Assembly (NCBI GenBank): GCA_024650005.2 | Contig: CP122380.1 | Span: 192,001 to 256,000, forward strand | DNA: 64,000 nt | Origin: Candidatus Bathyarchaeum tardum | GTDB taxonomy: Archaea; Thermoproteota; Bathyarchaeia; Bathyarchaeales; Bathyarchaeaceae | Reading direction: 5' to 3' | Notes under the pieces: generated by a model | The model's database searches: none | What the model saw: the letters and a program-made list of their open reading frames with translations, nothing else | What the model was told of the DNA's origin: nothing | Translations under genes and position numbers: made by a program | Shown here: piece after piece, positions 21,090-55,751 of the stretch | Numbering within the stretch: position 1 is the first letter of the stretch | Layout: each line of letters begins with the position of its first letter

Positions 21090-21150
21090 GTCAAGAAATA
21101 TTGACTAAATGTTCTTGTATAAATTGTTTCTATAGTCAAGAAACTTTGAC
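21090..21150 (-). promoter_or_regulatory. Two GTCAA-N6-TTGAC palindromes upstream of beta-helix operon
   Basis: GTCAAGAAATATTGAC 21090-21105; GTCAAGAAACTTTGAC 21135-21150. Confidence 0.75.
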
Positions 21151-21205
21151 TAATAGACTTTTGAGTTTTTGTTTATGCATTAGCCTCTGCTTTTTTAGCA
21201 GTATC

Positions 21206-21364
21206 CTATTCTGTCTTTTGGTGCAATAATTTTTTGCATTTTGGACAATAAGGCTGAAGACTAAAAGGTTTATCTACCCACCAAACCCTGTTTACCAGTT
21301 TATATTTGACTTTAGTTCCACACGAATAACATTTTCTTTCATGAGGTTCTCTTGCTTTTGACAT
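21206..21364 (-). CDS. 52-aa zinc-ribbon microprotein
   Basis: MSKAREPHERKCYSCGTKVKYKLVNRVWWVDKPFSLQPYCPKCKKLLHQKTE; CxxC...CxxC; below ORF-track cutoff. Confidence 0.65.
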   Translation of the reverse strand: MSKAREPHERKCYSCGTKVKYKLVNRVWWVDKPFSLQPYCPKCKKLLHQKTE

Positions 21365-21699
21365 TTACTGCGTCCCAAAAACGTATTAAATAATAAGACT
21401 AAATAAACTTTAATTATTGATAATACGGATTATTTGATGGGATTAAACTTTATCTCCTCTGCTGGTTTGAAAGGAATATCTTTACGGTTATCGTCCCTAC
21501 TAGGGTACCCTGACTGTTTTCCTTACCTGTATACACGATTTAGCACGTAAACACTCTACTTCTTTTGTTTATAATATGGTACCTTCCTTAATCCTCTCTT
21601 TCATATTTGGTATACAATCGCAAAGAAATGAGGAAGAAATTAATACTCTTGGTTTAATCTCCTGCATAAAAGCAAACAAGATTACATGTGCAAAGATGA

Positions 21700-21795
21700 T
21701 TACTTATTGCTTTTCTCTATTATGATGTCTGCAAAGTACCTGACCATTACCGATTGTTGTTTTTTCCCCTATTTGCTCCAAGGCTTCACGTGATC
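21700..21795 (-). pseudogene. HNH endonuclease C-terminal remnant
   Basis: DHVKPWSK*G then frameshift KTTIGNGQVLCRHHNREK, matching HNH DH..P.S.GG.....N...LC..CN..K. Confidence 0.75.
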
Positions 21796-21935
21796 ACTTT
21801 TAAATTAATAGATTAAGTAAAACTGTAAAAAGCCGATTATTATGGATTGTAAACCAAAATATGTTGCAGATTTTTTTATGGCAAACCTAAAAAGGAAAAA
21901 CAATCCACATTTTCTAATCGAGAATAGGGGTAATC

Positions 21936-22871
21936 ATGATGGTAAATGCGAGAGAATTTATTGAGAATGCCATAATTGAAATTAATGAAACAGTGGGAGA
22001 AAATAAGGTAATCTCTGCTTGTTCTGGAGGAGTTGACAGCATGACTGCAACTTATCTAGTTCACAAGGCTGTAGGCGATAACCTACTTGCAGTTTTCATT
22101 GATGATGGATTGAGGCGTCAAGGAGAACCAGAATTTGTTGCTGAAACACTAAAATCTTTAGGAATTAAAACAAGAGTAATTGATGCAAAAGAAGAATTCT
22201 TCAAAACTTTTCAAGGAAAAATTGATGCTGAAGAAAAACGCAAAGCTTTCAGAGACAAATTCTATAAAACTTTTGGAAAAGTAGCAAAAGAAGAAAACAT
22301 GAAATTTATTGTTCAAGGCACAATAAAGGCTGATGTACTTGAAACTGTTAAGGGAATTAAATCACAACACAATGTCCTAGAACAGATAGGAATTAATCCT
22401 CAAAAATATGGTTATGTAATTCTTGAACCCTTAAGAGAACTTTTTAAACCCGGTGTCAGAATGGTAGCTCGGGAACTTGGGCTTCCAAAAGAAGTTTCTG
22501 AAAGAATGCCTTTCCCGGGACCAGCATTATCACTAAGAGTCTTAGGGGAGGTAACTCCTGAAAAAGTTGCTATTGTACGTAAAGCAACTCAAATAGTTGA
22601 AGAAGAAACATCAAACCTTAAAACATTCCAGAATTTTGCAGTGCTTCATAACGACAAAGCTACTGGAATTAAAAATGACAAAAGAGTATATGGTAACATT
22701 GTAACAATACGGGTTGTAGTTTCAAAAGATGCTGTAACTGCAACTGCAAAAGAAATTGAATACAAAACATTATTCAAAATTGCAAAAAGGATTACAACGG
22801 AACTACCTACAGTTGTTAGATGTTTGTATGATGTTACAGATAAGCCACCTGCAACAATAGAGTTCGAATAA
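21936..22871 (+). CDS. guaAB: GMP synthase subunit B (ATP pyrophosphatase)
   Basis: SGGVDS, D.EEKRK, VQGTI..D, IKSQHNV, PFPGPAL, DVTDKPPATIEFE. Confidence 0.95.
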   Translation: MMVNAREFIENAIIEINETVGENKVISACSGGVDSMTATYLVHKAVGDNLLAVFIDDGLRRQGEPEFVAETLKSLGIKTRVIDAKEEFFKTFQGKIDAEEKRKAFRDKFYKTFGKVAKEENMKFIVQGTIKADVLETVKGIKSQHNVLEQIGINPQKYGYVILEPLRELFKPGVRMVARELGLPKEVSERMPFPGPALSLRVLGEVTPEKVAIVRKATQIVEEETSNLKTFQNFAVLHNDKATGIKNDKRVYGNIVTIRVVVSKDAVTATAKEIEYKTLFKIAKRITTELPTVVRCLYDVTDKPPATIEFE

Positions 22872-23018
22872 TACAAAAACATCTTAATTTTTTGGTTAAT
22901 TTTTAACCTTTTTTCCCTCTTCTTTTCTATCTTTCCTTTCTACTTTTCTTATCACAAAACACAAAATGAAATACAGTAAAACAAAAGACTCACACGCAAT
23001 TGTGGGAATAATTGTTAG

Positions 23019-23069
23019 GTCAAACTTTCTTGACAAGGTATCCGATATTTTTGGTCAAGGTTTCTTGAC
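23019..23069 (+). promoter_or_regulatory. Two GTCAA-N6-TTGAC palindromes upstream of PEF-CTERM gene
   Basis: GTCAAACTTTCTTGAC 23019-23034; GTCAAGGTTTCTTGAC 23054-23069. Confidence 0.75.
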
Positions 23070-23116
23070 AAAAACCCTTTTGTTTTCTCTAAATCCAGCA
23101 ATTATTCGTGAACATA

Positions 23117-23614
23117 ATGAAACGTATAATGATTATAAGTTCACTGATGACTGTTTTATTTCTTTCAACCTGTATACCTAACGCTGTTTTTGCCTCTTCT
23201 GAGAATTGGGTTGAAGTAATGAGATTTTCAGAAAACTCTTCTTGGTTAGGTGAGACGGACCCTTTTATTATTGACCATGTTGATTGGAGAATTAAATGGG
23301 AATATGTTCCAAGACCTAATGAAGAAAATCTGTCAGTTTTTCAAGTATATGCAGAAACACACGAAGACTTTCACAAAAGAGTAGATTCAATAGTAAATTG
23401 GGGTTCTGGAATCTATAATGGAACTCTAAACATAACCGATGATTTTGGCAAATATAAATTATTTATAATATCAAACGTGCCTAGCTTCTCAATAATAATT
23501 GAACAAAACATAGATTCCATCCCAGAATTTCCTTCATGGATAGTTTTACCCTTATTCTTGATTGCAACGTTGTCTTTGATTGCTGCCAGAAAAAAACTAA
23601 AACTAAATTCTTGA
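23117..23614 (+). CDS. Secreted protein with PEF-CTERM sorting tail
   Basis: MKRIMII signal peptide; IPEFPSW-TM-RKK C-terminus. Confidence 0.85.
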   Translation: MKRIMIISSLMTVLFLSTCIPNAVFASSENWVEVMRFSENSSWLGETDPFIIDHVDWRIKWEYVPRPNEENLSVFQVYAETHEDFHKRVDSIVNWGSGIYNGTLNITDDFGKYKLFIISNVPSFSIIIEQNIDSIPEFPSWIVLPLFLIATLSLIAARKKLKLNS

Positions 23615-23758
23615 GTAATGCTTTGTGATTCGGAATTTGAGAACACAATATCCGAGATTGAATAGGTTGTTTATTCCGGAATAGGCTTTGAATCCTGTTC
23701 TTTTTCACTCTGCCTGTGCCCCCTTGGGCACAATTCACTCGAGCACTGTAAGATTTTG

Positions 23759-24199
23759 TTATTTTTTATTCTGTTTTTGATCCATTACTTTTTTTGCTAA
23801 AATTACTGCTTCTTCTTTTGTTTCTCCGAATAATGCACCTATTTCATCTGCATCGTCTTCAGTCACAGCTGTGCCGCCAATCATGATTGTAATTTTGTCT
23901 TTTATTCCTTCGTTTTCTAGGGCAGAAACTACCTTTGGAAGATTATTTTTTGCAGCGCTCAATAAAACAGAAATAACAATTATGTCTGCGTTTGTCTCTT
24001 TAGCTTTTGACGCAAAAACTTCCGGAGAAGCCCCGCGTCCAACATCTACAACTTTAAACTGTGCCCTCTTCAAGGCTTTTCTGACCATCTCTTTAGCCGT
24101 AGTCATTATATCGGGATCAAGAGTACCTATTACCACAGTTCCAATTGGATTGTCTGGTTCAGGAGGTTCCTTGTCCATCATGCCTTTTAACCAAGCCAA
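23759..24199 (-). CDS. Cobalamin-binding (MtaC-like Rossmann) domain protein lacking the His ligand
   Basis: VVIGTLDPDIMTTAK, VVDVGRG..PE.F, DII.ISVLL, IMIGG.AV; GGTGA SD, TTG start. Confidence 0.8.
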   Translation of the reverse strand: MAWLKGMMDKEPPEPDNPIGTVVIGTLDPDIMTTAKEMVRKALKRAQFKVVDVGRGASPEVFASKAKETNADIIVISVLLSAAKNNLPKVVSALENEGIKDKITIMIGGTAVTEDDADEIGALFGETKEEAVILAKKVMDQKQNKK

Positions 24200-24309
24200 A
24201 AAATCACCCCTATATGTATAATACTAATAGATGCTGGAAGCTTTTAATCCTGCCGTTAAAATTGCATCCGTTCGGGTGTATTTTAATTGGTATTTTAGTT
24301 ACATAATGC

Positions 24310-24354
24310 TTATATTATTGGTTTTCTATGTTGGCTTTACTACCTAAAGTAGTA
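24310..24354 (+). promoter_or_regulatory. dnaK-operon promoter with TACTAC-N5-GTAGTA operator
   Basis: TTATAT near 24310; palindrome at 24338-24354. Confidence 0.55.
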
Positions 24355-24459
24355 TAGTACGTGTGGTAACAAATGACTGAAGCTCGAGCCGCCAAAAACA
24401 TTTACGAATCTGAAGAGGCAATGTGAGGGATTACTATCAAAGGCGATTTAGACCTATTT

Positions 24460-25137
24460 TTGATGATTCTGGAAAACCCCACACGAAGAGATATCATAAA
24501 ACGTCTCAGCGAGGAACCAAATTACTCCCTTCAGTTGGCAAAAGATTTAGGCCTAGGTCAACAGCTGGTTGCAAAACATCTGCGGATAATGGAAGAAGCT
24601 GGAATGGTGGCATCTTCTGTTGAAGCCAGTCCCCTTGGTCCCAAACGCAAAATCTACACCCTGGACAAGAACGTTTCTGTTACTTTGGATGTTTCCCGAC
24701 ATTTTTTCAAGGCCAAAGTTGTATTTTTTGACTCTGAGCCTGAACGAGAAGAAATCTCTGATACTTCTGCTTCTCTGATGGATAAAATGGACCAAACCCT
24801 GGAACGTCCAAAACAGTTTGAAACCATCACACCTTTTACCAGTATAATTTCTGAAATAGATAAACAACTAGAATCCTTGGAGAATGAACGTGCAATTTTG
24901 TTGTATATCAGAAATTTTGCAATGAAAGAAGCTTCCCACATCGTTGAGTTATTCACGAATCCTGATACAAGAAGAATCATCCGTTACGCTTTAGATGAAC
25001 ATGACATCAGCGTGAAAAGCATCTCTGAATCCCTAAATTTGAGGGAAACTATTGTTCGTCAGGCATTATCAAAATTGAAACAGAGTTTTAATATTGGAGT
25101 TGAAATTGTTGACGAAAACCCAAAAGAAAACCAGTAA
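24460..25137 (+). CDS. ArsR/HSR1-like heat-shock regulator (true start likely upstream, ~24430-24436)
   Basis: ILENPTRRDIIKRLS..P.Y..QLA..L...QQ.V.KHL..ME..G, GP.RK.Y; first gene of grpE-dnaK-dnaJ. Confidence 0.85.
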   Translation: MMILENPTRRDIIKRLSEEPNYSLQLAKDLGLGQQLVAKHLRIMEEAGMVASSVEASPLGPKRKIYTLDKNVSVTLDVSRHFFKAKVVFFDSEPEREEISDTSASLMDKMDQTLERPKQFETITPFTSIISEIDKQLESLENERAILLYIRNFAMKEASHIVELFTNPDTRRIIRYALDEHDISVKSISESLNLRETIVRQALSKLKQSFNIGVEIVDENPKENQ

Positions 25138-25681
25138 ATCGAGTGGAAAATCTTTGAAAGATTCTAACATTAACAAAGAACTTGAACAAAAAATAACCCA
25201 ACTAGAAGAACAACTAAGTGTAGAACAAAAGAAATCTCAAGACTACTTGACTAAACTCAAGTATCTGCAAGCTGATTTTGAAAATTACCGCAGAAGGGCA
25301 GAAAAACAGGTCCAAGATGCTGTTACTCGTAGCAACGAAAACCTGGTTTCATCCCTGATTGAAGTTATTGATGATTTTGAAAATGCAATTTCAGCAGGAG
25401 AAACAACCGAAAACAAAGATGCTCTGCTGGAAGGAATAAAAATGGTTCATAAAAAACTGGATTGTTTGTTGGCAACTGAAGGTTTAGAGCGCCTTGAATG
25501 TGTGGGTCACCAATTTGACCCCATAAAACATGAAGTTTTGGCGCAAATCCCAACCGACAACCATGAAAGTGGCACAGTCATTGAAGAAGCTCGCAAGGGC
25601 TTCGTTTTCAAAGGCAAAGTTCTCAGACCAAGCGTAGTTACTATCGCTTGTGAAAATTCAAAAGGTGAACACAATGAGTGA
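25094..25681 (+). CDS. grpE: Nucleotide exchange factor GrpE (start possibly TTG 25106/25109)
   Basis: [19 protein letters not shown]...KVLRPSVV. Confidence 0.96.
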
Positions 25682-27563
25682 AACAAAACGAGAAAGAATA
25701 TTAGGAATAGACCTAGGAACAACCAACTCTGCAGCTGCCATAATGGAAGCTGGAAGACCCGTAATCATCCCCAGCGCAGAGGGACCAACCATCGCGGGCA
25801 AAATGTTTCCGTCGGTGGTTGCCTTCACAAAAGATGGACAACTGTTAGTTGGAGAACCCGCAAAACGACAAGCGGTAACCAACCCAGAAGGGTCAGTTTT
25901 TGAAGTAAAACGAAAAATGGGTACAAACGAAAAGATCAAACTCCACGGCAAAGAATACAGTCCACAACAAATTTCTGCTTTCATACTTCAGAAAATTAAA
26001 CGTGACGCAGAAACCTTCCTTGGTGAACCTGTAAGCAAATGTATCATTACAGTCCCTGCCCATTTTAACGACAACCAGCGACAAGCAACCAAAGACGCTG
26101 GAGAAATTGCAGGGTTTGAAATTTCCCGAATAATCAACGAACCAACTGCGGCCTCCCTTGCGTATGGTTTAGACAAAACTGACAAAGAAATGAAAATTTT
26201 GGTCTTCAGTTTCGGTGGAGGAACCAACGACACTACAATCATGGATTTCGGTGGAGGAGTCTTCGAAGTTTTAGGAACAAGCGGAGATACTCAACTAGGT
26301 GGAACAAACTTGGACTCTGCAGTTGTAAATTACTTACTTGGAGACTTCAAAACCCAAAACGGCATTGACCTAAGCAATGACGCCATGGCAATGCGTCGAC
26401 TTAAAGAAGCTGGAGAAAAAGCCAAAATTGAGCTTTCAACCTTGCTCACAACTGATATCGATCTGCCTTTCATTGCTTCTGACGTTAGTGGTCCAAAACA
26501 CTTGCATGTTACATTAACTCGAGCTAAACTTGAACAACTAACAAGACCCATAGTTGAAAAAATCCGCGAGCCAATATTGCGAACCTTGCGAGACGCTAAA
26601 CTAGAAACAAAAGACATCGACAAAGTCGTATTAATTGGCGGACAAACGCGAATGCCTTTGGTTCGAAAATTTATGGAAGATCTTCTAGGTAAACCTGCTG
26701 AACGTGGTGTTGACCCGATGGAGTGTGTTGCTGTTGGTGCTGCAATTCAAGCTGGAGTCTTGGCTGGAGAAGTCAAAGACCTTCTACTGTTGGATGTTAC
26801 TCCCTTGTCTCTTGGAGTTGAAACTCTAGGTGGAGTTTCCACAAAAGTCATCGAACGAAACACAACCATACCCACCAAGAAAAGCCAAATATTCTCTACT
26901 GCTTCAGATAACCAAACAACCGTAACCATAAACGTGTTGCAAGGCGAACGTGCCATGGCAAAAGACAATGTTTCCTTGGGAATGTTTAACCTAACTGGAA
27001 TACCACCTGCGCCTCGAGGTGTCCCTCAAGTTGAAGTAACCTTTGACATTGACGCTGACGGTATCCTGAATGTTTCAGCCAAAGATTTAGCCACAAGCAA
27101 GGAACAAAAAATTACCATAACTGCTTCAACAAAACTTTCTGACACAGAAAAAGAACGTATGATGAAAGAAGCTGAACAATTCGCCGAAGAAGACGAAAAA
27201 CGCAAAAAAGAAATCGAAGTCCTCAACGAAGCTGACTCGTTGCTCTATACTGTAGAAAAAACCAAATCTGACCTAGGGGACAAACTTGCAAAAGATCAAA
27301 TCGAAAAAATCGATAAAGCCGCAGCTGAATTACGAGAAGTTCATAGTAGCAAAGACATTGAAAAAATCAAAGAAAAATCTGAAGCTTTAACCAAAATCTT
27401 GCAAGAAGTAGCTACTGTAGTTTACCAGCAAGCCGCGGCTGCACAGCAAGCAGCCCAACAGGCTCAAGGAGCGCAAGGGCAACAAGGACAACCGAACGCT
27501 GAAGGTCCCAAAGAAAACGTTGTAGATGCAGAATATGAAGAAGTAAAGGACAACAAAGAATAA
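25674..27563 (+). CDS. dnaK: Chaperone DnaK (Hsp70)
   Basis: [55 protein letters not shown]. Confidence 0.98.
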
Positions 27564-27596
27564 TCACCCTGTTGTTACGGCTTAGGCTGATATCCA

Positions 27597-28691
27597 GTGA
27601 CTGACAAACGCGACTACTACGAAGTTCTTGGAGTGTCAAAAGATGCTCTAAAACCCGAGATAAAAAAAGCATACCGAAAATTAGCTATGCAATACCACCC
27701 TGACCGAAACAAAGACGGAGGCGCTGAAGAAAAATTCAAAGAAATATCTGAAGCCTATGCTGTTCTTTCTGACGACGAAAAACGTAGCCAGTACGACCAG
27801 TATGGTCATGCTGGAATCAACGGGAAATACAACTGGGAAGACATTTACCGAAACACCGATTTTAACTCAGTTTTCAGAGACATCGGTTTCGGTGGGTTTG
27901 GCTCCATTTTTGACATGTTCTTTGGTGGAGGTGGAGGCGGTCGACGGGGGGGTCCACAAAAAGGTCAGGATTTGCGTCATCCAGTGGTGATCACTCTGGA
28001 AGAAGCTGCTTCTGGGGTTGAAAAAGAAATTGAATTCGACGGTTTTGACTCCTGTGACGTTTGTAGCGGCAGTGGAATTAAGCCTGATGCAAAAACTAGC
28101 CGATGTCCTGAATGCCAAGGAACTGGTCAGGTGCGTTCTGCTCGAAATTTGGGGGGTATGTACTTTACTCAAGTTCATCCTTGTAGGTCATGTAATGGAA
28201 GAGGCGTTCCTTTAGATAGTATATGTCAAAGTTGCAGGGGTTCTGGCGCTAAGCCTGCACGGCACAAAATTAAAGTAAAGATTCCCGCTGGATTTGAAGA
28301 TGGATACAGCCTGCGCATAAATGGCGAAGGCAAGCCTGGAATTAAAGGCGGTCCTCGGGGAGACTTGTATGTGCTTGTACACATTAAACCTCATAACCTG
28401 TTTGTACGCAGGGGTGATGACATTTTGTATGAAACCCAAATTAGTTTTCCTCAAGCTGCCTTGGGGACCAAAATTATGGTGCCCACATTAAATGGCGAAG
28501 CTAAACTGAAGATTCCAGATGGAACCCAAAGTGGAACAGTTTTCCGTTTGAAAGGCAAAGGTGTTCCTCATTTGCGGGGTTGGGGAAGTGGAGACCAGTT
28601 CGTAAATGTTGTCATCAATACTCCCCAGAAGCTATCGAAAAAACAAAAGAAACTCTTGAAAGAACTAGAAAAAGAATTTAAACACGATTAA
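27597..28691 (+). CDS. dnaJ: Chaperone DnaJ
   Basis: J-domain HPD, G/F region, four CxxCxGxG motifs; GTG start. Confidence 0.98.
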
Positions 28692-29131
28692 CTTCTATTT
28701 TCAGCTCTTTTTTTCTGTTTTTCCCATTTTTTCTTTGCTGATCAGTCATTGGTTGGTTGTGTATTGTTGTATCTTTGGTTTCTTTGGTTATTTTGGTTTT
28801 ATTTGCCTGTTCCAGCGTTTTCTTGTGCTTTTGTACGCTGTTTTTGTAGTTTTTGGTACTTCTGTTCTACAGTTTAAATATTGACTAATACTTCAGTTTT
28901 CCCCCATTTTTTTATGCATTATGTATTCTATTTTTAGTTATTTATGAAATTTAGTTGCGATTTTGAAGTTATTTTTGCTGTTGAAGTTGCTGGCGTGATA
29001 TGCTTTGATATTGTTTGTCGTCACACCCATCCTTAAATCGATGTTTGACCTGTTATGAAAGTAAGAATATGTCTGGATAATGACATATTGTATAACTGTA
29101 ACACATAACTACACAAGGAAGATGGAAAAAA

Positions 29132-29530
29132 ATGAACAAACAAGAAATTAGAAAAGCTGAAATCAAGCTCGTAAGAGGAATGCTTGACCTAGTTGTCCTA
29201 GGGTTATTAAAGGATAAATCCCTCCACGGATATGGAGTAATAACAAACATACGCAAAAACTTTGGAGTTTACTTTGGTCCCAGTACCATCTACCCTCTGC
29301 TGGGTGAACTTGAAAAGAAAGGGACCATCAAAAGCGAATGGGACCTAACCCATGACCGTCCACGAAAAGTATATTCTTTAACCCCTGAAGGGGACAGTTT
29401 GTTAAACGGTGTGGAACAATCCCTTTACCAAATATGCAACAGACTCAACGAATTCGGGATGAACCGTTTGCGTCTTAACTGCCCAACAATTGACAACCAA
29501 CTGAAAGTAAACGATGTGATTTCCCTATGA
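29132..29530 (+). CDS. PadR family regulator
   Basis: LHGYGVI, GPSTIYPLL..LE..G.I, RPRKVYSLT..G. Confidence 0.92.
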   Translation: MNKQEIRKAEIKLVRGMLDLVVLGLLKDKSLHGYGVITNIRKNFGVYFGPSTIYPLLGELEKKGTIKSEWDLTHDRPRKVYSLTPEGDSLLNGVEQSLYQICNRLNEFGMNRLRLNCPTIDNQLKVNDVISL

Positions 29531-29727
29531 CCTCCTCATCAATTCAAAGAATTAACATCTTTGACGCCTTGCATACTGCCATAACGTCAAAAGACAAAAA
29601 ACAACTTAGATTCGCAAAATGTCCACAATGTGGTCGACACACGCCCTACCGAATAGAAAACCTGGGTGACAATGGCCTTCGCTGCAAGCGATGTGGTTCT
29701 CGTATTTCGTTGTATTATCGACAATGA
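29527..29727 (+). CDS. Small zinc-ribbon protein coupled to PadR gene
   Basis: CPQCG...CKRCG; ATGA overlap. Confidence 0.65.
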   Translation: MTSSSIQRINIFDALHTAITSKDKKQLRFAKCPQCGRHTPYRIENLGDNGLRCKRCGSRISLYYRQ

Positions 29728-29762
29728 AATGCGAATAAAGGTTGTTTTGTGTGGATTGTTTG

Positions 29763-29978: not shown

Positions 29979-30004
29979 ATAATCTGAATATCCGTTTAGC
30001 AATA

Positions 30005-46809: not shown

Positions 46810-46887
46810 CTCTTCGAAACAGACAACAATTATATCCTCTGATGAAAATAAGACCTTCATGTATGTTTAGTGTTGGTTGGTGTTTGA

Positions 46888-47649
46888 GTGGTCATAATTT
46901 TTCTTATTGGAACTGCTGGGTCGGGCAAGTCTCTTCTTACTGCGTCTTTGAATGAATTGCTCAAAGTCCAAAAACAAAAATCAATTACAGTAAACTTGGA
47001 TCCAGGTGTTTCAAACCTGCCCTATAAACCAGATATCGATATCAGAAACAAAATTGACATTAACCAAATCATGGAAGAATACCAACTTGGACCCAACGGC
47101 GCCTTGGTTCTAGCTTCAGACCTTATAGCAGAAGAAGCCGCAACCATCGGAGGTGAAATCGAAGATTTCCAATCAGATGTTGTTCTGGTGGACACCCCTG
47201 GGCAAATGGAGTTGTTTGCTTTTCGAGCAAGTGGACCCTATATTGCAAACGAATTAACATCTGAACAAAAAGCAATCGTGTACCTTTTTGATTCTGTGTT
47301 TTCTTTTAATCCTCTGAATTATGTTTCAAACATGTTCTTGGCCTCTGCAGTGTATAACAGGTTCTTTTTCCCACAGTTGCATGTGCTTTCAAAATGTGAT
47401 CTGTTGCCTCCTGAAGAATCGGAACGGATTGTTGAATGGTCCCTAGACCCAGAAATGCTTGAAACAGTAATCGAAGAAACTCTCGAAGGAACCCGTATGC
47501 TTTTGAGCCGAGACATGGTTCACGTTATTCACCGTTTGGGGCTAGATTTTCAGTTGGTGCCTGTGTCTGCAAGGACTAATTATGGAATAATTGAGCTAAA
47601 CTCTGCGCTGGAACGAATTCTGGTGGGTGGCGAAAAGTTTACTATGTAA
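46888..47649 (+). CDS. GPN-loop GTPase
   Basis: GTAGSGKS, NLDP, LGPNG, DTPGQME. Confidence 0.95.
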   Translation: MVIIFLIGTAGSGKSLLTASLNELLKVQKQKSITVNLDPGVSNLPYKPDIDIRNKIDINQIMEEYQLGPNGALVLASDLIAEEAATIGGEIEDFQSDVVLVDTPGQMELFAFRASGPYIANELTSEQKAIVYLFDSVFSFNPLNYVSNMFLASAVYNRFFFPQLHVLSKCDLLPPEESERIVEWSLDPEMLETVIEETLEGTRMLLSRDMVHVIHRLGLDFQLVPVSARTNYGIIELNSALERILVGGEKFTM

Positions 47650-47842
47650 CTTTCTATTTCGTAAAGTTCTGAAAGATTAAAATATGGTGAACATAAAATA
47701 ATTGCATCAAACCTTTGGAACTAGATTTTTTATTTTTTATTGGTATATAATAAGATTTGTGTTTTTTTGTGTATTTAAATCATACATGTGTTAAACATTT
47801 ATGCATAATGTTTATATTTCACACTATTATGAATTTGTAACT

Positions 47843-48328
47843 ATGATGAAAAAAAGAATGCTCAGACTCTTGTTTGAGCTTATGAAAAACGCTAAACGAA
47901 GCGACAGGGAAATCGCAAAAATCATCGGAGTCTCCCAGCCAACCATTACACGAATGCGACAACGGCTCGAAAAAAAAGCCATAGTCGATTACACCGTAAT
48001 TCCCGATTGGACCGAATTGGGTTTTGAAATCATGGCAATGACCTTGGTCAAAGCCAAAGGCTCAGTTGAAGTAACTGAAAAAGCAAAGAAATGGGCTATG
48101 GAAAACGCTAACGTTGTTTTCGCAGCAAGCGGTGAAGGCTTTGGAATGGATTTCTCGGTTTTGTCTTTCCACCGTAACTATTCCGGATACTCCAAATTCG
48201 TTGACGAACTAAAAGCACAACTCGCAGACAACATCCAAGACGTACAAAGCTTCCTGATGGCAACTGACAAAGAACGCACCCTAAAACCCCTCTCCCTCAA
48301 ATACCTTGAAAAAGCAGCAGAAGAATAA
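47843..48328 (+). CDS. Lrp/AsnC family regulator
   Basis: KNAKRSDREIAKIIGVSQPTITR HTH; RAM-like C-terminus. Confidence 0.88.
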   Translation: MMKKRMLRLLFELMKNAKRSDREIAKIIGVSQPTITRMRQRLEKKAIVDYTVIPDWTELGFEIMAMTLVKAKGSVEVTEKAKKWAMENANVVFAASGEGFGMDFSVLSFHRNYSGYSKFVDELKAQLADNIQDVQSFLMATDKERTLKPLSLKYLEKAAEE

Positions 48329-48634
48329 GACTAAACAACGCACAAAGGCGTTGTTAACGTCCATTTTTTTCTTTTTTTAGAACTTTTCTTATGCTTCTGA
48401 TTTTTCAGAAAAAAGCTTGTTTTGGAAGTTTAACCTCCGGAAAAATTAAAAATCATATTAAAATTTGAGATTACGGGAATTTAATTTTTCACCGAAGTTA
48501 TTCTTGGAAAATAAAACTGTTCTATAATGTGAAAATAACTGATTACCTGGTAGATTACAAAACTATAATACTGAATCGACTAACTTAAATTAATAAAAAA
48601 CAGTATTTGTATAAAACACCCGAAATGTGGTTCA

Positions 48635-51600
48635 ATGTCACAATTTAATGAAATATTATCTGATAAAATAAAGTATTGGAAATGTCGGTTAATTGACTTG
48701 TCTCGTCGAAATAACCTAATTTCTTATCGTTTCACTAAATCAAAAAGCGTTTTAGTTTCTGCTCCAAACATATCTGGTGTATTTGATGCAATCGATGAAA
48801 ATAATGTAATCCTTTTTCAAAAAACTGATGATGTTGAGGATCAAACTAAAGGTTGGATTTCGTCTGAGGATGATTCAACAACTAATAAAAAACTATACAA
48901 CATCTATTTAAAAGCACGAGAAAACTTTCAGGAATTAGGTGTTAATACCTGCTTTTTGGGAATAGGATTTTTAGAATACAAAGATAGTGAATGGTCTACA
49001 GATTTAATTAAAGCACCATTAATTTTAATGCCTGTAGAAATTGAGCGAACAAAAAAAGTTTCAAAGTTTTACCATAAATTTGATATTTTCTCAGAACCGG
49101 ATGATTTTCAACTAAATCCTTCTTTAAAAGAAAAATTAGCGGCAGAGTATGGAATAAACTTAGAAGAAATTGAAGAAGGTACAGACATTTACGAATATCT
49201 AGATCAACTAAAACAGATTATTAGCCAACATGAAAACTGGAAGTTTCTTGAAGAAGTAGTTCTAGATATTTTCACCTACCAGAAATACATTATGTATAAC
49301 GACCTTGAATTAAATGACGAAAACATCAAAGAAAACCCATTAATTCGAGCGTTTGTAGGAGACAGAAATGCATTACTGGGCGATTATTCCGAAATACTTC
49401 GGGAAGAATTTAATGATGTTACTGATGTTGATGTGTTCAGTGCAGATTCTTCTCAAAAACGTGCAATTGAATTGGCTAAAGCAGGTGCAACATTTGTTCT
49501 CCAGGGACCGCCAGGAACAGGAAAAAGTCAAACAATATGCAACATAATTGCTGCATTAATTGAAAAAAAGAAGAAAGTTCTCTTTGTTAGCCAAAAAATG
49601 GCTGCATTAGATGTTGTTTTAAATAGATTGAAAGAAAAAGGCTTGGACAGGTATTGTCTTAATCTGCACGCTTATAGAGGAAATAAAAAGCAGATCATTG
49701 CTCAATTAATGGATCAGCTAGAAAATTCTCCAATAATCAAAGATTATGCAAAACAATATTCATTTTCAAGTTATCTAAAAGCTCAATCAAAAATTAATGA
49801 TTACTACAAAAATCTATGTGAAAAAAGGGTTCTGCGAAAGCTTTCCTTATTTGATGTACGTGGAAAACTTGCAAAACTAGAAGATACTCATAACCTGAAT
49901 GCTCAACTTTCAAATACACTTAACATTAATGATGAGGAATTTTTGAATCTTATCGATAATATGGAAAAGTTAGATATCATCCTAGATTCAGTTGTAGATC
50001 CTCTAAATAATCTGTACCGTTACTATAAACCAATTTTTAATACTACATATCAGCGGGCCAATCTAAAAAATGATCTTAACAATATGTTAACCTCTTTTGA
50101 AATATTATTCAACTATGTAAACTCATTGCCCATCATGAATGATGAGAATAAACCAAATACTTTCAAAGAAATGGATTTGTTTATAGAAAATCATGAAAAA
50201 ATAAACGCTTTAAAAATTCCAATCGAATTGTTATCCGACAACTTTTTCACATACCATAAATTGTTGAAAGAGATCTTTCCAATTTTTGAGAGAATCAATG
50301 AAATTAAAAGTGAAATTACATCACAGGTATCTGAAAAATTTCTTGAAATGGATACATCTGAACATCAAATTTTGCTCACAGAAACAGGCTTATTTGGCAA
50401 ACTTTTCAGCTCAAAATATAAAACTGCAAAAAAAGAACTTGATGAATTAGCGAATACACCCTTAGAAAAAAACAATTGGTTAAAGTTATTTGATAAAAAA
50501 GCCAAATTCATGGAAAACGTGGATTCATTTAATTCAATAATTCAAACAAATATTACTGTTTTTCAAAAACTAAAAATTATCGACAATCATGAAATAATTC
50601 CTGTTTTGCTTGAACTTACAACTAAAATATTAAAAATTATTGATCAATTTGATTTAGACCAGCAAACTTCACTGAATATTATACAATTTATGAAAACTAA
50701 TTCGTGCATATTTACTGAATATTTAGAGATTAAAAATAGCTTGAAGATTTTGGAGGATTATTTTGAAAATCTGAAACTTGTTGATTATGGATTCGATCAA
50801 ATTCCAGAAATTATTAAGAAATTGATTAAAGATCACGATAAAATAGACTATATCCTGTTATTTTACAAAACATTCAATGAATTGTCTACTGAATTAATGA
50901 CATTCGTGAAATTATATCTTGAAAATAGAAAAGTAGGTTCCCTGCAAAAATGTTTTGAAAAAACATATTATCTCCAATTACTTGACAAAATAGAGCGTTC
51001 AGATAGAATTTTTTCACCCAAATTACAGATTGAACAATTTAGAAACAAAGATGTTGAAACACGTAACATAAAACGATTCAAAATAATGAACACTATTGAG
51101 TCATCTCAGCCTTCGTATACTTATGACAGCTGTAGCAATAGTGAGGTTCAAATATTAAAGCGTGAAAACAGAAAGAAAAGAAGAGTAAAACCTATTCGAA
51201 AGCTATTACAAGACATCCCAAATCTAACTTTTTCATTAACACCTTGTTTTATGATGAGCCCTCTGACCGTTAGTCAGTACTTAGATTATCCTCACATACA
51301 TTTTGATGTGGTAATCTTTGATGAAGCATCACAAATAATGCCTGAAGATGCAATTCCTTGTTTTCTTAGAGCAGATCAGGCAATAATAATGGGTGACACC
51401 GAACAATTGCCACCCACCAGTTTTTTCAATCGGGGTCTTGATGATGAAGACTTTGATGAAGACATAGTGGATCTTGAAAGTCTATTATCTGAAGCAAGTA
51501 TAAAATTCCGAGAAAGCTCCTTGAATTGGCACTACAGAAGCAAAAATGAAAACCTCATTGCTTTTTCAAATTACTGCTTTTATAAAAACAGATTAATTAC

Positions 51601-53146
51601 ATTTCCAAATTCAAAGCAAGATGCAGAAACAGGGATAGATTTTGTATTTGTTAAAAATGGCGTATATGATAGAGGAAAATCAAGAACAAACAGAAAAGAA
51701 GCAAAAAACGTGGTTAGCACATACAAAAAATTAAAGAAAGAAAATCCCTCCAAAACCTTTGGAATAATTGCCTTCAGCAGACAACAGGAAAGAGCAATTA
51801 GAGATGCTTTTCTACTAAAAAACATTGACATTGACAACTCAATAGACGATATGGACGAGCCTTTGTTCATAAAAAATCTTGAAACTGTTCAAGGGGACGA
51901 ACGAGACATTATAATCATAAGCGTCGGTTATGGACCTGATGAAAAAGGCAAATTTAGTTATAACTTTGGACCTCTAAATAAAGAAGGGGGATACAAACGG
52001 CTAAATGTTGCAGTAACACGATCAAGGTACAAAACAATAATTATTTCCTCAATTGATCCTCAATTCCTTGATGAAGACAAAATCAATGTAGATGGCGTAC
52101 GATATCTGAAAAACTATCTAAGTTTTGCAAAAACTTCACAAATGCCTGAACTTACAAAAACCATTGAGGGCATAGAATTTGATTCTGATTTTGAGGAAGC
52201 TGTATATGACGCACTAAAAAATGAAAATTTTGAACTGATTACACAAATAGGGTGTTCAGGGTACAGAATAGATTTAGGTATCAAAAATCCCGAAAAACCT
52301 GGTGAATATATACTGGGAATAGAATGTGATGGGACCCAATATCATTCATCCAGGTTTGCACGAGATAGAGATAAAATTAGACAAAATGTCTTAGAAAAAT
52401 TAGGTTGGAACATTCATCGAATATGGTCTGAAGATTGGCTCAAAAATAGAGAATTTGAGATACAAAGGATAAAAACAAAAGTTGAGCAATTATCTGTTAC
52501 TCCTATAAAAGAAAGTAAAAAAAAAGAACACTTCGAGAGAGTAGAAACAGTAAATCATTTTAAAGAAGTATGTTTTGATGATATTTTTCCGAAATATACC
52601 GTGAAAGAGCTCCAAAAAATTGATTTTGATCTTGAATGGTCAAGTTCCAGAGGATATTGGTTTTATGACAATAATCTCTTGATATTAGAACGAATGCTTG
52701 ACGTTATTAATATTGAAGCGCCAATGACAAAAACATTGTTATTCCAAAGAGTTAGTAAATCGCTCTCCATTGGAAAAATAGGTAATAGATTGAATAATTA
52801 TTTTGAAATGTTGCTGGAGTTGTTAGAGCGAAAAGAGTATTTGTTTAATAACGGTTCAACTCTTTCAACTAAACCCATAAAGAAATTGGAAAGAATTAGA
52901 ATTTCAAATTCTAAACAACGAAGATTTGAATGCATTCCAATAGAAGAATTAGCTTCAGCCTGCGTTGAATTATTGAAAATAAATGTTAGCATGGAAAAAG
53001 ATGGGTTAATTCAGGATGTAGCTAGAAAATTTTATGGAAATAATAGATGTGGAACTAAAATAGAGAAAAAAATGAATGAAACAATCAGTTATCTAAAGAA
53101 AGAGAAAATTATTATAATTCATGGGAATAACATTAAGCTAAAATAA
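48635..53146 (+). CDS. DUF4011 - SF1 (Upf1/DNA2-like) helicase - Vsr/REase - DUF3320-like protein (Hhe-type defence)
   Basis: W...LIDLSRRN.L, QGPPGTGKSQT, DEASQ, HYRS, ETVQGDERD, RLNVAVTR, DSDFE..V...YRIDL...GIECDG..YH...RD..RQ..LE..GW. Confidence 0.88.
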   Translation: MSQFNEILSDKIKYWKCRLIDLSRRNNLISYRFTKSKSVLVSAPNISGVFDAIDENNVILFQKTDDVEDQTKGWISSEDDSTTNKKLYNIYLKARENFQELGVNTCFLGIGFLEYKDSEWSTDLIKAPLILMPVEIERTKKVSKFYHKFDIFSEPDDFQLNPSLKEKLAAEYGINLEEIEEGTDIYEYLDQLKQIISQHENWKFLEEVVLDIFTYQKYIMYNDLELNDENIKENPLIRAFVGDRNALLGDYSEILREEFNDVTDVDVFSADSSQKRAIELAKAGATFVLQGPPGTGKSQTICNIIAALIEKKKKVLFVSQKMAALDVVLNRLKEKGLDRYCLNLHAYRGNKKQIIAQLMDQLENSPIIKDYAKQYSFSSYLKAQSKINDYYKNLCEKRVLRKLSLFDVRGKLAKLEDTHNLNAQLSNTLNINDEEFLNLIDNMEKLDIILDSVVDPLNNLYRYYKPIFNTTYQRANLKNDLNNMLTSFEILFNYVNSLPIMNDENKPNTFKEMDLFIENHEKINALKIPIELLSDNFFTYHKLLKEIFPIFERINEIKSEITSQVSEKFLEMDTSEHQILLTETGLFGKLFSSKYKTAKKELDELANTPLEKNNWLKLFDKKAKFMENVDSFNSIIQTNITVFQKLKIIDNHEIIPVLLELTTKILKIIDQFDLDQQTSLNIIQFMKTNSCIFTEYLEIKNSLKILEDYFENLKLVDYGFDQIPEIIKKLIKDHDKIDYILLFYKTFNELSTELMTFVKLYLENRKVGSLQKCFEKTYYLQLLDKIERSDRIFSPKLQIEQFRNKDVETRNIKRFKIMNTIESSQPSYTYDSCSNSEVQILKRENRKKRRVKPIRKLLQDIPNLTFSLTPCFMMSPLTVSQYLDYPHIHFDVVIFDEASQIMPEDAIPCFLRADQAIIMGDTEQLPPTSFFNRGLDDEDFDEDIVDLESLLSEASIKFRESSLNWHYRSKNENLIAFSNYCFYKNRLITFPNSKQDAETGIDFVFVKNGVYDRGKSRTNRKEAKNVVSTYKKLKKENPSKTFGIIAFSRQQERAIRDAFLLKNIDIDNSIDDMDEPLFIKNLETVQGDERDIIIISVGYGPDEKGKFSYNFGPLNKEGGYKRLNVAVTRSRYKTIIISSIDPQFLDEDKINVDGVRYLKNYLSFAKTSQMPELTKTIEGIEFDSDFEEAVYDALKNENFELITQIGCSGYRIDLGIKNPEKPGEYILGIECDGTQYHSSRFARDRDKIRQNVLEKLGWNIHRIWSEDWLKNREFEIQRIKTKVEQLSVTPIKESKKKEHFERVETVNHFKEVCFDDIFPKYTVKELQKIDFDLEWSSSRGYWFYDNNLLILERMLDVINIEAPMTKTLLFQRVSKSLSIGKIGNRLNNYFEMLLELLERKEYLFNNGSTLSTKPIKKLERIRISNSKQRRFECIPIEELASACVELLKINVSMEKDGLIQDVARKFYGNNRCGTKIEKKMNETISYLKKEKIIIIHGNNIKLK

Positions 53147-53243
53147 TAACAAATTTTTTGATTTTTATTTTCATCATTTATGGTTCGTAAAGCATTAATA
53201 CAACTTATTTACGAAGTTTTCGTTAAAACGAGTTGGGATTAAA

Positions 53244-54209
53244 ATGAGTTTCAGTGAAAAGGAAGTTTATCAAGGTTTGTTATATTATTACTCGACCAAA
53301 TATCCGAATAATCCCAAAACCATTTTAGAAAATGATATACTGGCAGAAATTAAGTCTGGCAAAACAAGAAAGTTAGCAATTGAATCATTATTTGCTCAGA
53401 CGTTTCAAAAAGATATGTCGGAATTGAAAGATTTAGCCAAATCAAGTCCAAGCAAGCAGAATAATTATCGTGTTAAATCCATGTTCACTCGAGAAGAAAT
53501 GGAAAATTTTGGCAGCAATATACTAAACAAAAAATCAAAAGGAAAAAGCCCAACTTTTAAAAAAATTAGTAAAGTGAAGAAGTATCCTAAAGGATACTAT
53601 TTGCATTTACTCGCTCTTGATGAAGTAAGTGGATATTATAGAAGTGAAGGCGATCCCAAATGGTGGGAAAAAAGAGCGGGAAAAGATTACACTTGCACAA
53701 TTTGTCACAGATCGATTCCTAAAACCACCCGATACATTGGACAACAGATGCTAAAGCCAGGTAGAAAGGGCATATATGGCTACAAAGGAACGTACACAAC
53801 TAGATATTATCATATTATTTGTATTTTAAAGCAAAAAAAAGGTATTCTTCAAGCAAACATATCAAAGTTGGAAAATGAAATACAATCTTTGGAGCAGAAA
53901 ATTGAAGATTTACGAAGAGAAATTTCAGTAAATGAAGTGGGAATTTATAAAAATATTGAAATTATTAATAAAAAAAGGCAAGAATGTACAGAAGCAGGTT
54001 TTTTTGGTAAAATTAGCAAAAAAATCCATTTATTTTTTGATGAACGATTACTTACTAATCAAAATAACAAAATGAAAAAAATTATTTTCAAAATAAAAAA
54101 TGAAACAATTCCAACATGTGAACTCAAAATTAAAAAATCTGTCAATCTAAAAAATGCTACTAAACAATCGTTAAGACAAATAAGCGAAACTATTGAAGAT
54201 ATAATCTAA
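53244..54209 (+). CDS. Hypothetical basic protein with CxxC...HxxC finger and coiled coil
   Basis: CTIC...YYHIIC; heptad-rich C-terminal half; AT-rich like upstream gene. Confidence 0.7.
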   Translation: MSFSEKEVYQGLLYYYSTKYPNNPKTILENDILAEIKSGKTRKLAIESLFAQTFQKDMSELKDLAKSSPSKQNNYRVKSMFTREEMENFGSNILNKKSKGKSPTFKKISKVKKYPKGYYLHLLALDEVSGYYRSEGDPKWWEKRAGKDYTCTICHRSIPKTTRYIGQQMLKPGRKGIYGYKGTYTTRYYHIICILKQKKGILQANISKLENEIQSLEQKIEDLRREISVNEVGIYKNIEIINKKRQECTEAGFFGKISKKIHLFFDERLLTNQNNKMKKIIFKIKNETIPTCELKIKKSVNLKNATKQSLRQISETIEDII

Positions 54210-54216
54210 AGTTGTA

Positions 54217-54438
54217 TCAACAAGCTTTAAGGATGTTAAACATCACGTTCAACATGAAAGTCCTTATGATTTTAAAAGGCCACAAATAACTAAAAGACTT
54301 TTTCATATTTGTTAAAAATCTGGACACTTTCTCTTTTTTGATGGTTTCTTCTTCATTTTTTGTATGTGCAAAAGTAACCTGAACCAGTAAACAAATTATC
54401 CCAAGCAAAACAACAACCCTTACAGCTTTACTTACCAT
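54217..54438 (-). CDS. Small secreted/membrane hypothetical protein
   Basis: Signal-peptide-like N-terminus; overlaps stop of upstream beta-helix gene. Confidence 0.5.
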   Translation of the reverse strand: MVSKAVRVVVLLGIICLLVQVTFAHTKNEEETIKKEKVSRFLTNMKKSFSYLWPFKIIRTFMLNVMFNILKAC

Positions 54439-55682
54439 TTACTGCAACCAACTTTTTTGGACAGCCTTTTTCGACACAAAAAAGCAACCAAAGTTATGCT
54501 TAAAAACAAAGGCAAAACAAGCCATGATGGAAATTCTGGTATTTCGTTAGATATTTCTTGTTCGAGTTCAGGGTCGTTATTGTTGACGGTGCTATTGTTT
54601 GAATCTCCTTTGACTCTTATGGGTAAGACTTTGTTTTTGGTTATTGCGTTTTCAACGATGTATGCGTTTGGGCAGTCATACAAACTAATGTCCACTTCTT
54701 GGTTGTTTGTTACAATGTTTTTTGTAATGCTTGTGTTCCAAGCTCCCCATGCATAAATGCCGTCGTTTGTGTTTTGTGTTATGTTGTTTTTGGTAATCAC
54801 GTTATTGAAGCAGCACTCATATGAGCCTTGAAACGCAATGCCATAGTAATTATTTCTTAGATGATTTCTTGTTATTACTGAATTGTTTGTGGCGACAAGG
54901 AGTATTCCTTGGCTGTTGTTGGTGAGAACAAAGTTTTCGACAGTTATGTTTGTGCAGTTTACAAGAGCCACATATCCCGTGTTGACTGGCACGGTTTTGT
55001 TTTTCTCGTTAACCCAGTAAGTTATGGATTTCCCATTTATCGTGTTTGAATCATCTATGTCGCTGATGTAGGAGCTCATGTGGCTAGATGTTTCGCAGTC
55101 TATCCACAAGTTGTAGGTATTGTTGCTTAGCTGATTGTTTCTAAAAACATAAGATGGACAGTGATGAATGAAAACGCCGTATGTGTTGTTTGCTATGATG
55201 TTTTCCTCAAGATAATTATTTTTTGAAAAAATCATTGATTTTATTCCATAGGTATTGTCTGTTAGGCTATTTTGGGACAGTGTAATGTTTGTACAACCAG
55301 CCAATGATTCTGCATACGTGAAATGGATGCCATGCCTGAAGTTCTTGATGTGCAGATTCTTTATTTCCACGCTGTTCTGGCCCTGCATCCAAATACCATT
55401 AAGACTTCCATTTCCTTGAAGGGTGTGACCAGCACCATCAATAACTATGTCGCTAGAAAAAACTACGATACTGCCTGCAATGTCTCCTGTAAACGTGTAA
55501 ACATTTCCGCTACGTTGAATCATATCTGTGCCATTTACTGATCCGTTTTCCGTAATTTCGATGCTGTGCTCGGGCACTGAAGCTGGAAAAAAGTTTGCAG
55601 AAACAAAACTGATAAACTGTGGACTAATGCATACTAAAACTAGCAAAGCGATTAACGTAACTGAACACAACAGCTTCTTCAA
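54432..55682 (-). CDS. Secreted NosD/CASH beta-helix protein with PEF-CTERM tail
   Basis: TTG 55682 signal peptide (LKKLLC...), IDGAGHTLQG, NN...N repeats, IPEFPSW-TM-RKR. Confidence 0.9.
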   Translation of the reverse strand: MKKLLCSVTLIALLVLVCISPQFISFVSANFFPASVPEHSIEITENGSVNGTDMIQRSGNVYTFTGDIAGSIVVFSSDIVIDGAGHTLQGNGSLNGIWMQGQNSVEIKNLHIKNFRHGIHFTYAESLAGCTNITLSQNSLTDNTYGIKSMIFSKNNYLEENIIANNTYGVFIHHCPSYVFRNNQLSNNTYNLWIDCETSSHMSSYISDIDDSNTINGKSITYWVNEKNKTVPVNTGYVALVNCTNITVENFVLTNNSQGILLVATNNSVITRNHLRNNYYGIAFQGSYECCFNNVITKNNITQNTNDGIYAWGAWNTSITKNIVTNNQEVDISLYDCPNAYIVENAITKNKVLPIRVKGDSNNSTVNNNDPELEQEISNEIPEFPSWLVLPLFLSITLVAFLCRKRLSKKVGCSKW

Positions 55683-55735
55683 GTTAACCAACCGTTTACT
55701 TAATTTCAAAATCAAAAAAGAATATAGCATTTTTT

Positions 55736-55751
55736 GTCAAAGTTTCTTGAC
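55736..55751 (-). promoter_or_regulatory. GTCAA-N6-TTGAC palindrome upstream of PEF-CTERM gene
   Basis: GTCAAAGTTTCTTGAC (exact reverse complement of the 21135 copy). Confidence 0.75.

Follow-up and report, generated by a model that had tools for sequence, protein, structure and literature searches.

GTCAA-N6-TTGAC palindromes at surface-protein promoters of Candidatus Bathyarchaeum tardum as candidate operators of a membrane-anchored DUF7347 regulator

Introduction

Among the closest described systems are ArnR and ArnR1 of Sulfolobus acidocaldarius, membrane-bound one-component activators that combine an N-terminal helix-turn-helix (HTH) with a membrane anchor (PMC10117864). In this work, a palindrome, GTCAA-N6-TTGAC, is examined in a 64,000-nucleotide stretch of Candidatus Bathyarchaeum tardum (contig CP122380.1, positions 192,001 to 256,000; G000:C1:192001-256000, where G000 is the genome under study), hereafter the window, and in the whole genome and its relatives, together with a candidate regulator of the DUF7347 family. 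The two systems share the N-terminal HTH and membrane anchor, inverted repeats located upstream of the element recognised by transcription factor B (BRE), control of a surface structure and paralogs that differ in their sensor parts (PMC10117864). In ArnR, HAMP and sensor domains lie between the HTH and a C-terminal helix, and the protein acts on the arlB promoter (PMC10117864). In contrast, no HAMP match is found in the candidate, its helix comes right after the HTH with a large, 260-residue domain beyond it that is predicted to lie outside the cell, its paralogs appear to change the operator, and about 30 scattered promoters would be served.

A palindrome or repeats just upstream of the BRE are also documented for TFB-RF1 (PF1088) of Pyrococcus furiosus and EarA of Methanococcus maripaludis (PMC5937170, PMC5512572, PMC10117864). 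TFB-RF1, an activator of its own operon, protects the DNA between -47 and -70 from the start, next to the BRE on its upstream side (PMC5937170). These factors use other motifs, have regulons of one or two operons, work with a weak BRE and are not described in those accounts as membrane-anchored (PMC5937170, PMC5512572, PMC10117864). Here, in contrast, the A-run at the BRE position appears to be intact, and a plain T-run often occupies the TATA position.

In bacteria, the PrsK/PrsR system and the cis site of proteobacterial PEP-CTERM genes offer a parallel: one upstream motif marks most sortase targets (99/167, compared with 32/40 by operon here) and is found together with a membrane-linked regulator (PMC1569441). 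That system is a sigma-54 two-component system serving an exosortase and has no homology to the present one (PMC1569441), which looks like a convergent archaeal solution in a single protein. A DNA-binding domain joined to a transmembrane helix is likewise found in the ToxR/CadC-type regulators, of which single-pass forms are the commonest (PMC10269533); the string 'Bathyarch' is absent from the main text of that source, and its supplements may list these proteins. HlyU and NolR share the fold and read palindromes as dimers with helix 4, HlyU as an activator, but are soluble (PMC4330345, PMC8960804).

The literature searched yielded no regulon from Bathyarchaeia, no paper on DUF7347, no operator or recognition code for this family and nothing on the palindrome, although a remark on motifs upstream of PEF-CTERM genes may exist in the archaeosortase literature. 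The kind of system is known, and its family, operator, regulon size and paralog code appear to be new. Based on the computed motif, its geometry and targets, its co-occurrence with the family, sites in the family's own promoters and the covariation of recognition helix and operator, we estimate at roughly 0.75 the probability that the palindrome is the operator of a membrane-anchored one-component DUF7347/ArsR-type regulator, which we take to act beside the BRE as a dimeric activator.

Results

The palindrome marks promoters of secreted and membrane proteins

The window contains five exact copies of GTCAA-N6-TTGAC, at 21090, 21135, 23019, 23054 and 55736, where 0.13 are expected and where five were reached in 0 of 100 shuffles (Table 1). 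The original prediction, which had listed these copies, had also placed the proximal one at each of three loci about 46-53 nt before the start of a signal-peptide gene; the measured gaps to the start codon are 46, 47 and 53 nt. As it had further described, each proximal copy is directly followed by an A-run and a TATA-like tract (AAAAACCCTTTT at two loci, AAAAAATGCTATAT at the third). All three genes encode a signal-peptide-like start and a tail composed of an IPEF motif, a transmembrane segment and basic residues (IPEF-TM-basic), and the products are not all homologous: two belong to the NosD beta-helix type, and the third matches no Pfam family. The spacer, claimed to be partly conserved, does have the consensus GGTTTC, but its orientation is not fixed: read on the gene strand, four sites have a T-rich spacer and the site at 55736 has an A-rich one.

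Table 1 Features of the three loci in the window (positions of the window; gene products predicted from sequence)
Feature	Position	Strand	Remark
Distal operator	21135..21150	.	45 bp upstream of the proximal copy at 21090
Proximal operator of the minus-strand NosD/PEF gene	21090..21105	.	Ends 46 nt before ATG 21043
BRE-like A-run and T-rich TATA position (AAAAACCCTTTT)	21078..21089	-	Abuts the operator; putative BRE/TATA
622-aa secreted NosD-type beta-helix protein, IPEF-TM-basic tail	19175..21043	-	Predicted
NosD-type beta-helix protein, degenerate tail (IPEN-TM-basic)	18003..19178	-	Probable second gene of the operon; overlaps the stop of the first gene (19175..21043)
Distal operator	23019..23034	.	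35 bp upstream of the proximal copy at 23054
Proximal operator of the plus-strand small PEF gene	23054..23069	.	Ends 47 nt before ATG 23117
BRE-like A-run and T-rich TATA position (AAAAACCCTTTT)	23070..23081	+	Follows the operator 23054..23069
165-aa secreted protein, no Pfam family, IPEF-TM-basic tail	23117..23614	+	Predicted
Lone operator, spacer A-rich on the gene strand	55736..55751	.	Exact motif copy
BRE-like A-run, then a more TATA-like tract (GCTATATT)	55720..55735	-	Abuts the operator 55736..55751
416-aa secreted NosD-type beta-helix protein, IPEF-TM-basic tail	54432..55682	-	Probable TTG start (55682), 53 nt past the site

Across the genome, 42 exact copies occur in 28 loci, compared with 1-8 copies for spacers of 0-5 and 7-12 nt, and GTCAA is the sole enriched form among the 32 (G/C)xyAA-N6 palindromes (42 versus 2.3). 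Only two of the 42 sites lie within genes, though the genome is about 80% coding as judged with our own crude gene caller. A site 25-110 nt before the start is found for just one of 1314 genes that lack a hydrophobic segment, again as judged with a crude gene caller. A genome scan with a matrix derived from 41 of these 42 sites places a site at 19 of the 27 transcription units with PEF tails, which hold 32 of the 40 PEF genes. Among the eight PEF units without a site under the matrix rule, that at 176046 probably uses a site beyond a small open reading frame (ORF).

The claim that all PEF-CTERM promoters carry the palindrome thus describes the three PEF units of the window and not the genome as a whole. 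Nor are the marked promoters strictly those of PEF proteins, since sites also precede other secreted and membrane genes. Overall, the targets comprise beta-helix and Kelch proteins and proteins of no family, together with an FtsX-type permease, a 4Fe-4S and a methyltransferase-like membrane protein and a radical SAM/SPASM enzyme. The regulon is one of secreted, C-terminally anchored proteins in general. A scan for enrichment in the genome and its relatives, which the original prediction had proposed as a check, found the sites to be intergenic and enriched at surface-protein promoters and not randomly placed. Strong sites without a clear downstream gene (G000:C1:1650732, 428493, 259109, 1181893 and 1887385) and truncated target genes (1261243, 1325360 and 1739746) were also seen and are taken as signs of regulon turnover.

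Two matches in the genome reach the cut-off of profile TIGR03024; the window proteins do not match it, though their sequences plainly show the motif, the helix and the basic tail. The genome has one sortase (L006:1586-2605; G000:C1:1249085-1250104), which carries the family signature (48.7, cut-off 23). By profile it is not ArtC (26, cut-off 100), and its nearest relative is thaumarchaeosortase (107.8, cut-off 250), so it is possibly a new subfamily for PEF tails. Among the genome-wide matrix matches, the sortase gene has no operator.

The site abuts a putative BRE at a fixed distance

In 36 hand-curated promoters, conservation is limited to TT(A/G/T)-GTCAA-GGTTTC-TTGAC and the adjoining AAAAA-(C)CC-TTTT, and the extended form of the operator is TTRGTCAA-N6-TTGACYAA. 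On the gene strand the spacer is T-rich in 25 of these promoters, A-rich in 8 and mixed in 3, and the A-run stands at offsets 0-4 from the site in 92-97% of them. The A-run and T-tract are taken as BRE plus TATA because TTTAA/TTAAA-type boxes often occur at the same position in promoters of the family designated f9 and because the tRNA promoters of the genome read, by eye, A-run-CC-TTAA. By this likeness, the site would stand immediately upstream of the BRE at a fixed distance, about 47 nt before the start, as in the TFB-RF1/EarA type. A model of BRE/TATA learned from 33 tRNA promoters was abandoned because it drifted.

Many promoters carry a pair of sites, with spacings of 34 bp (7 pairs), 35 bp (5), 42 bp, 43 bp, 44 bp (3) and 45 bp (6), so that 21 of the 23 pairs fall at 34, 35, 44 or 45 bp. 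The phasing is strong (resultant 0.89 at a 10.5-bp period, n = 23), and promoters of the regulator family add spacings of 24-25 and 54-55 bp. These spacings advance in steps of ten; therefore, both sites of a pair would lie on one face of the helix.

A winged-helix membrane protein is the candidate regulator

One near-perfect match of the matrix scan stands 47 nt in front of the gene at C1:1340465, which encodes a winged-helix membrane protein. Three close paralogs of 434, 358 and 287 residues are encoded in the genome, all above the cut-offs for DUF7347/HTH_5. The 434-residue paralog (C1:1421810-1423114), whose gene sits between aIF2-gamma and PIN/rpoE genes (named by reading of the sequence), scores 34.3 bits against PF24038 (cut-off 27.6) and 32.9 bits against HTH_5 (cut-off 22). 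The ArsR/SmtB metalloregulator profile NF033788 scores below its cut-off (33.3 versus 55 bits), and residues 1-95 contain no cysteine.

The predicted structure of this paralog (predicted local distance difference test score of 85.7) comprises a winged helix (residues 8-85) with the recognition helix SSSHLTYHL, a loose linker, a helix (100-169) and a further domain (177-432), and it matches SmtB/HlyU folds. Helix 100-169 opens with a hydrophobic segment, and such a segment near residues 95-120 is found in 61 of 62 held-out homologs. A DNA-binding domain followed by a transmembrane segment is the predicted architecture of a transmembrane transcription regulator. The outer domain resembles YpeB and M4-protease propeptides (FTP/PepSY; E values of 6e-7 to 6e-5), a likeness that structure comparison (TM-scores of 0.45-0.48) leaves as a lead only. 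Five secreted, stand-alone homologs of this outer domain are encoded in the genome (E values of 3e-73 to 9e-32; C1:1726342, 1953456, 775257, 583840 and 774028), of which 775257 has an additional domain fused to it and 774028 (L259:228-983), broken by a stop, carries an operator.

Several observations concern the surroundings of these genes. A radical SAM/SPASM gene (L010:881-1951; G000:C1:423880-424950), closest to AhbD/NirJ2 although it reaches no cut-off, is a divergent neighbour of the regulator gene in 15 of 83 loci; in the present genome it is unlinked and has its own operator, and it is a probable core target. In several genomes, the two-helix (DSGH) paralog follows a sequence that by eye resembles a tRNA 3' end (upstream in L017, L018, L019 and L020), a hint at integration. 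In several same-genus genomes (L275, L276, L281, L284, L287 and L290), the regulator lies within a few kb of an HTH-NrdD gene with secreted genes inserted beside it; this neighbourhood is probably the ancestral locus and an insertion hot spot. Finally, distant DUF7347 membrane proteins of other families have inverted repeats containing GTCA/TGAC upstream (L037, L039 and L040), and the operator type may predate the clade.

Operator variants track the recognition helix

Of 117 family genes examined, seven distant ones and one fragment were dropped. Among the remaining 109, a G-xx-AA-N6-TT-xx-C site lies 36-125 nt upstream of 70, with 110 sites in all compared with 3.1 in shuffles, and the variable bases are the same in both arms in 52% of cases versus 16%. 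Such own-promoter sites also occur in another order (family f24, for example L079). In an overlapping set of named homologs, 46 of 80 have sites, nearly all of them GTCAA/GTAAA-TTGAC.

The two variable bases differ with the helix type. Proteins with SS[HN]LTY have TC in 54 of 72 half-sites, with a strict site in 25 of 50 promoters; DSGH goes with TA or TG (42/46 half-sites, 14/15 promoters), DNGLLN with AG (42/58 half-sites, 16/16 promoters) and [ET]TG[FY]LN with AA (16/20 half-sites, 7/7 promoters), and S[ST]P proteins have sites in none of seven promoters. As far as sequences can tell, the operator variant thus tracks the helix: GTCAA with SSSHLTYH, GT(A/G)AA with DSGHLSYH and GAGAA with DNGLLNYH. 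The varying residues align with SQSALSQHL, the recognition helix of HlyU, which contacts the major groove (PMC4330345); in NolR, base-specific contacts come mostly from this helix (PMC8960804).

A held-out set was assembled from 80 metagenome loci, of which 17 were duplicates or already seen and one was short. A site is present in 58 of the remaining 62, and DNGLLN promoters have AG in 59 of 100 half-sites and TC in one. The variant GAGAA-N6-TTCTC is nearly private to family promoters in some genomes: these hold 4 of 4 genome-wide copies in G184, all at its two DNGLLNYH genes, 3 of 4 in both G227 and G214, and 4 of 12 in G230. In G233, three tandem paralogs (L078) each have a different operator variant. 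For the other two paralogs of the present genome, no regulon emerged, as neither CTCAA-N6-TTGAG (287 residues) nor GT(A/G)AA (358 residues) is enriched genome-wide.

Because of this helix-operator code, the sites of the window are assigned to C1:1421810. Provided that the family is the reader, they probably belong to this SSSHLTYHL paralog.

Motif and regulator co-occur

All 24 same-genus genomes have 6-75 copies of the palindrome (1-15 for a reversed control), the weakest being G010 with 6 versus 3, compared with 0-2 copies in 16 other-family genomes. In a draw of 251 genomes from the class, at least six copies are found in 19, of which 6 are of the same genus and 13 of family f9; four genomes from other genera of the same family have 0-1. 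In three f9 genomes, a downstream ORF is present at 23 of 29 promoter-form sites; 22 of the 23 have an N-terminal hydrophobic segment and one has an IPEF tail, some long ORFs being cut by the locus end. A polytopic membrane protein without a Pfam family has the operator in both families (L220 in G272; G000:C1:1156191-1157447) and is taken as a second conserved target.

A close regulator homolog is present in 23 of the 24 same-genus genomes and in none of the 16 other-family genomes. In the class draw, 18 of the 19 motif-rich genomes have such a homolog (E <= 1e-28), compared with 11 of the other 232, as counted by hand among related genomes that are not independent. In most of the 11, the best match has an altered helix (STPNLTYH in 4, PSSHLTYH in 4, DSGH/DSAH in 2). 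With few exceptions among 80 loci, named records of close homologs come from Candidatus Bathyarchaeum or other Bathyarchaeia, and no family member was found in the viral contigs searched.

Observations against the proposed regulator

Several results weigh against the proposal. The gene of the 434-residue paralog has no site in its own promoter, and half of the promoters of its helix type (25/50) lack a strict one. Among held-out ETGFLN promoters, where AA was predicted, GA was found in 15, AA in 10 and AC in 5 of 32 half-sites, so that only the third base held, and in ETGLLN promoters one arm reads GTCAA and its partner is unlike it. The code is overstated by the covariation statistics, since a promoter is inherited along with its gene and the helix types are for the most part distributed by clade, although shared descent does not easily give a joint change of both arms and both copies. 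Two motif-rich assemblies, G019 (15-16 sites, 95% complete) and G191 (13 sites, 96% complete), yielded no close homolog by protein or profile search; both have normal-looking operators and are fragmented. In G074 (10 sites), the only paralog seen is STPHLTYH, of the type with 0/7 own-promoter sites. Lastly, tests for a weak TATA at the regulated promoters gave no clear result (p = 0.098; pattern count 15/33 versus 19/33 tRNA promoters; post hoc p = 0.067).

Neighbouring features of the window

Two one-mismatch sites at 3143 and 3174 were rejected as chance occurrences: they score under the matrix threshold and overlap the start of an Hsp20 gene. Directly before this gene (about 3154-3753) lies a small winged-helix gene (2696-3139) with a weak DUF7347 match, and a second ArsR-type gene (24460-25137) heads a grpE-dnaK-dnaJ operon. 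Based on these positions, the two are candidate heat-shock regulators. An integrase-domain remnant with an internal stop and a score below the cut-off is found at 9454-9630. The region 48635-55682, which holds a 1503-residue helicase-like gene, an orphan and the NosD/PEF gene and is adjoined by tRNA-Leu at 55946, looks like an island.

Discussion

The original prediction proposed that an undescribed factor co-regulates the surface-protein repertoire. The intergenic sites, their fixed distance, the unrelated flanks and the candidate factor agree with this proposal, with the amendment that the repertoire is not strictly PEF. On the evidence above, the DUF7347 family very probably binds the operator physically, and activation is favoured over repression with less assurance.

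In the proposed mechanism, the regulator would carry an N-terminal winged helix, followed by a single transmembrane helix, a long helix and, outside the cell, an FTP/PepSY-like domain. A dimer would place one recognition helix on each 5-bp half-site, the half-sites being 11 bp apart. The first dimer would sit directly upstream of the BRE, and a second would often bind whole helical turns further up, on the same face of the DNA. Upon a signal from outside, the regulator would most likely recruit TFB/TBP and so switch on about 30 promoters, mostly for surface proteins such as secreted beta-helix and Kelch proteins. By motif, the genome has five TFB-like candidate ORFs, four of which are of TFB size. 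The propeptide-like outer domain invites the speculation that an outside protein or peptide is bound. The ancestral circuit would be self-regulation by each paralog, with the SSSHLTYH type having taken over the surface-gene repertoire in some lineages.

The strongest competing explanation keeps the family and operator and makes the protein a repressor: the dimer would cover the 5' edge of the BRE and block TFB until it is released by cleavage or by a signal from outside. The flank conserved around the site (TT before and AA after it) overlaps the first three bases of the A-run, the unclear outcome of the weak-TATA tests is counted on the same side, and most ArsR-type proteins are self-repressors. 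Against this, the core stands on the upstream side of the BRE, with additional sites still further upstream and never downstream, which is the layout of an activator (PMC5937170, PMC10117864), and a plain T-run is found at 16 of 21 paired-site versus 5 of 12 single-site promoters (a post hoc comparison). Repression is unlikely as a complete account and only slightly less so once DUF7347 is granted to be the reader.

It is improbable that a different, soluble factor reads the palindrome and that the membrane regulators are simply members of its regulon. This reading would accommodate the two motif-rich assemblies without a close homolog, and the regulators of the genome were surveyed only in part by family. 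Yet the paralog-specific variants are nearly private to each promoter and differ even among tandem paralogs, and a separate hidden factor would be needed for each.

A specific alternative reader, the HTH-NrdD fusion at C1:177069, has very little in its favour. Two sites lie 140 and 184 nt upstream of its gene in this genome, and its HTH is weakly related to the DUF7347 family (E = 2e-4). The gene, whose product has an invariant helix, is found, however, in 38 of 41 genomes, among them 15 of the 16 that lack the motif. Of 32 loci, five have sites upstream of it; the BRE/TATA points away from the gene at each of these five, and a divergent ORF for a secreted protein is seen at four. The class II reductase gene has no site. 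Based on the distribution, the BRE/TATA orientation and this last gene, HTH-NrdD was rejected as the reader in this lineage.

The original prediction had alternatively regarded the sites as recombination or shuffling signals for surface-gene cassettes, which is about equally hard to sustain. The 5-6-5 palindromic geometry and the scatter of single surface genes between housekeeping genes would suit such a role, as would the integrase-domain matches, of which the genome has 10, with one lying about 1.4 kb from a site and another just past a PEF cluster, but a general linkage of integrases to the sites was not seen. Sites are 5' only: a 3' site is present at 1 of 40 PEF genes, where it is the promoter of the next gene, and a single set of sites serves whole operons of eight and five genes. 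The distance from site to start is fixed while spacers differ even within pairs, and the sites do not bound a unit on both sides with one matching spacer, as in dif or att arrangements. Contigs of an independent run from another study (X3) keep the gene order, with a spacer substitution at 21090 and intact arms. In contigs of four runs, of which X1 may be the source of the window, no well-supported joint was found at the sites, contigs being prone to drop rare variants; the joints seen had only 28-34 matching letters at the repeat or came from low-identity contigs. The palindrome is most likely an operator and not a recombination site, although genes may travel with their promoters, given the integrases beside two surface-gene loci.

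Recent duplication of whole upstream regions helped to spread the motif in places (the regions upstream of 2080529 and 2082217 are 90% alike over 114 nt) but is refuted as its sole cause and is the least probable account, since mean flank identity is 0.32-0.33 versus 0.28-0.29 in controls, compared with 0.78 for the site and 0.68 for BRE/TATA (630 pairs), and the layout is kept in other families and another order.

Under the preferred reading of a membrane-anchored DUF7347 activator, a broader picture may be drawn, though we hold it only tentatively, at somewhat less than even odds. Bathyarchaeia would possess modular single-protein surface receptors, in which a winged-helix/membrane module is joined to changing outer domains and two to four helix residues set the operator. 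At least one outer domain would have been taken from the cell's own surface-protein families, of which five stand-alone copies are present in the genome. Receptor-operator pairs would be largely separate, and one of them would act from the membrane as master activator of the sortase-anchored surface proteome at about 30 scattered promoters, a one-protein archaeal counterpart of PrsK/PrsR.

Bathyarchaeia are abundant in sediments and have no genetics. For DUF7347, a family of unknown function, the present analysis provides a candidate regulator whose soluble part is 95 residues, an operator, targets and a base-level prediction. If the proposal is true, the regulon would, to our knowledge, be among the larger ones tied to a membrane-anchored archaeal factor, and it would bear on how such factors reach many promoters. 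Receptor-operator pairs of separate specificity could serve as parts for archaeal gene control. In assembled genomes, the operator flags co-regulated surface proteins and may thereby offer a handle on the control of the cell surface in these little-studied archaea.

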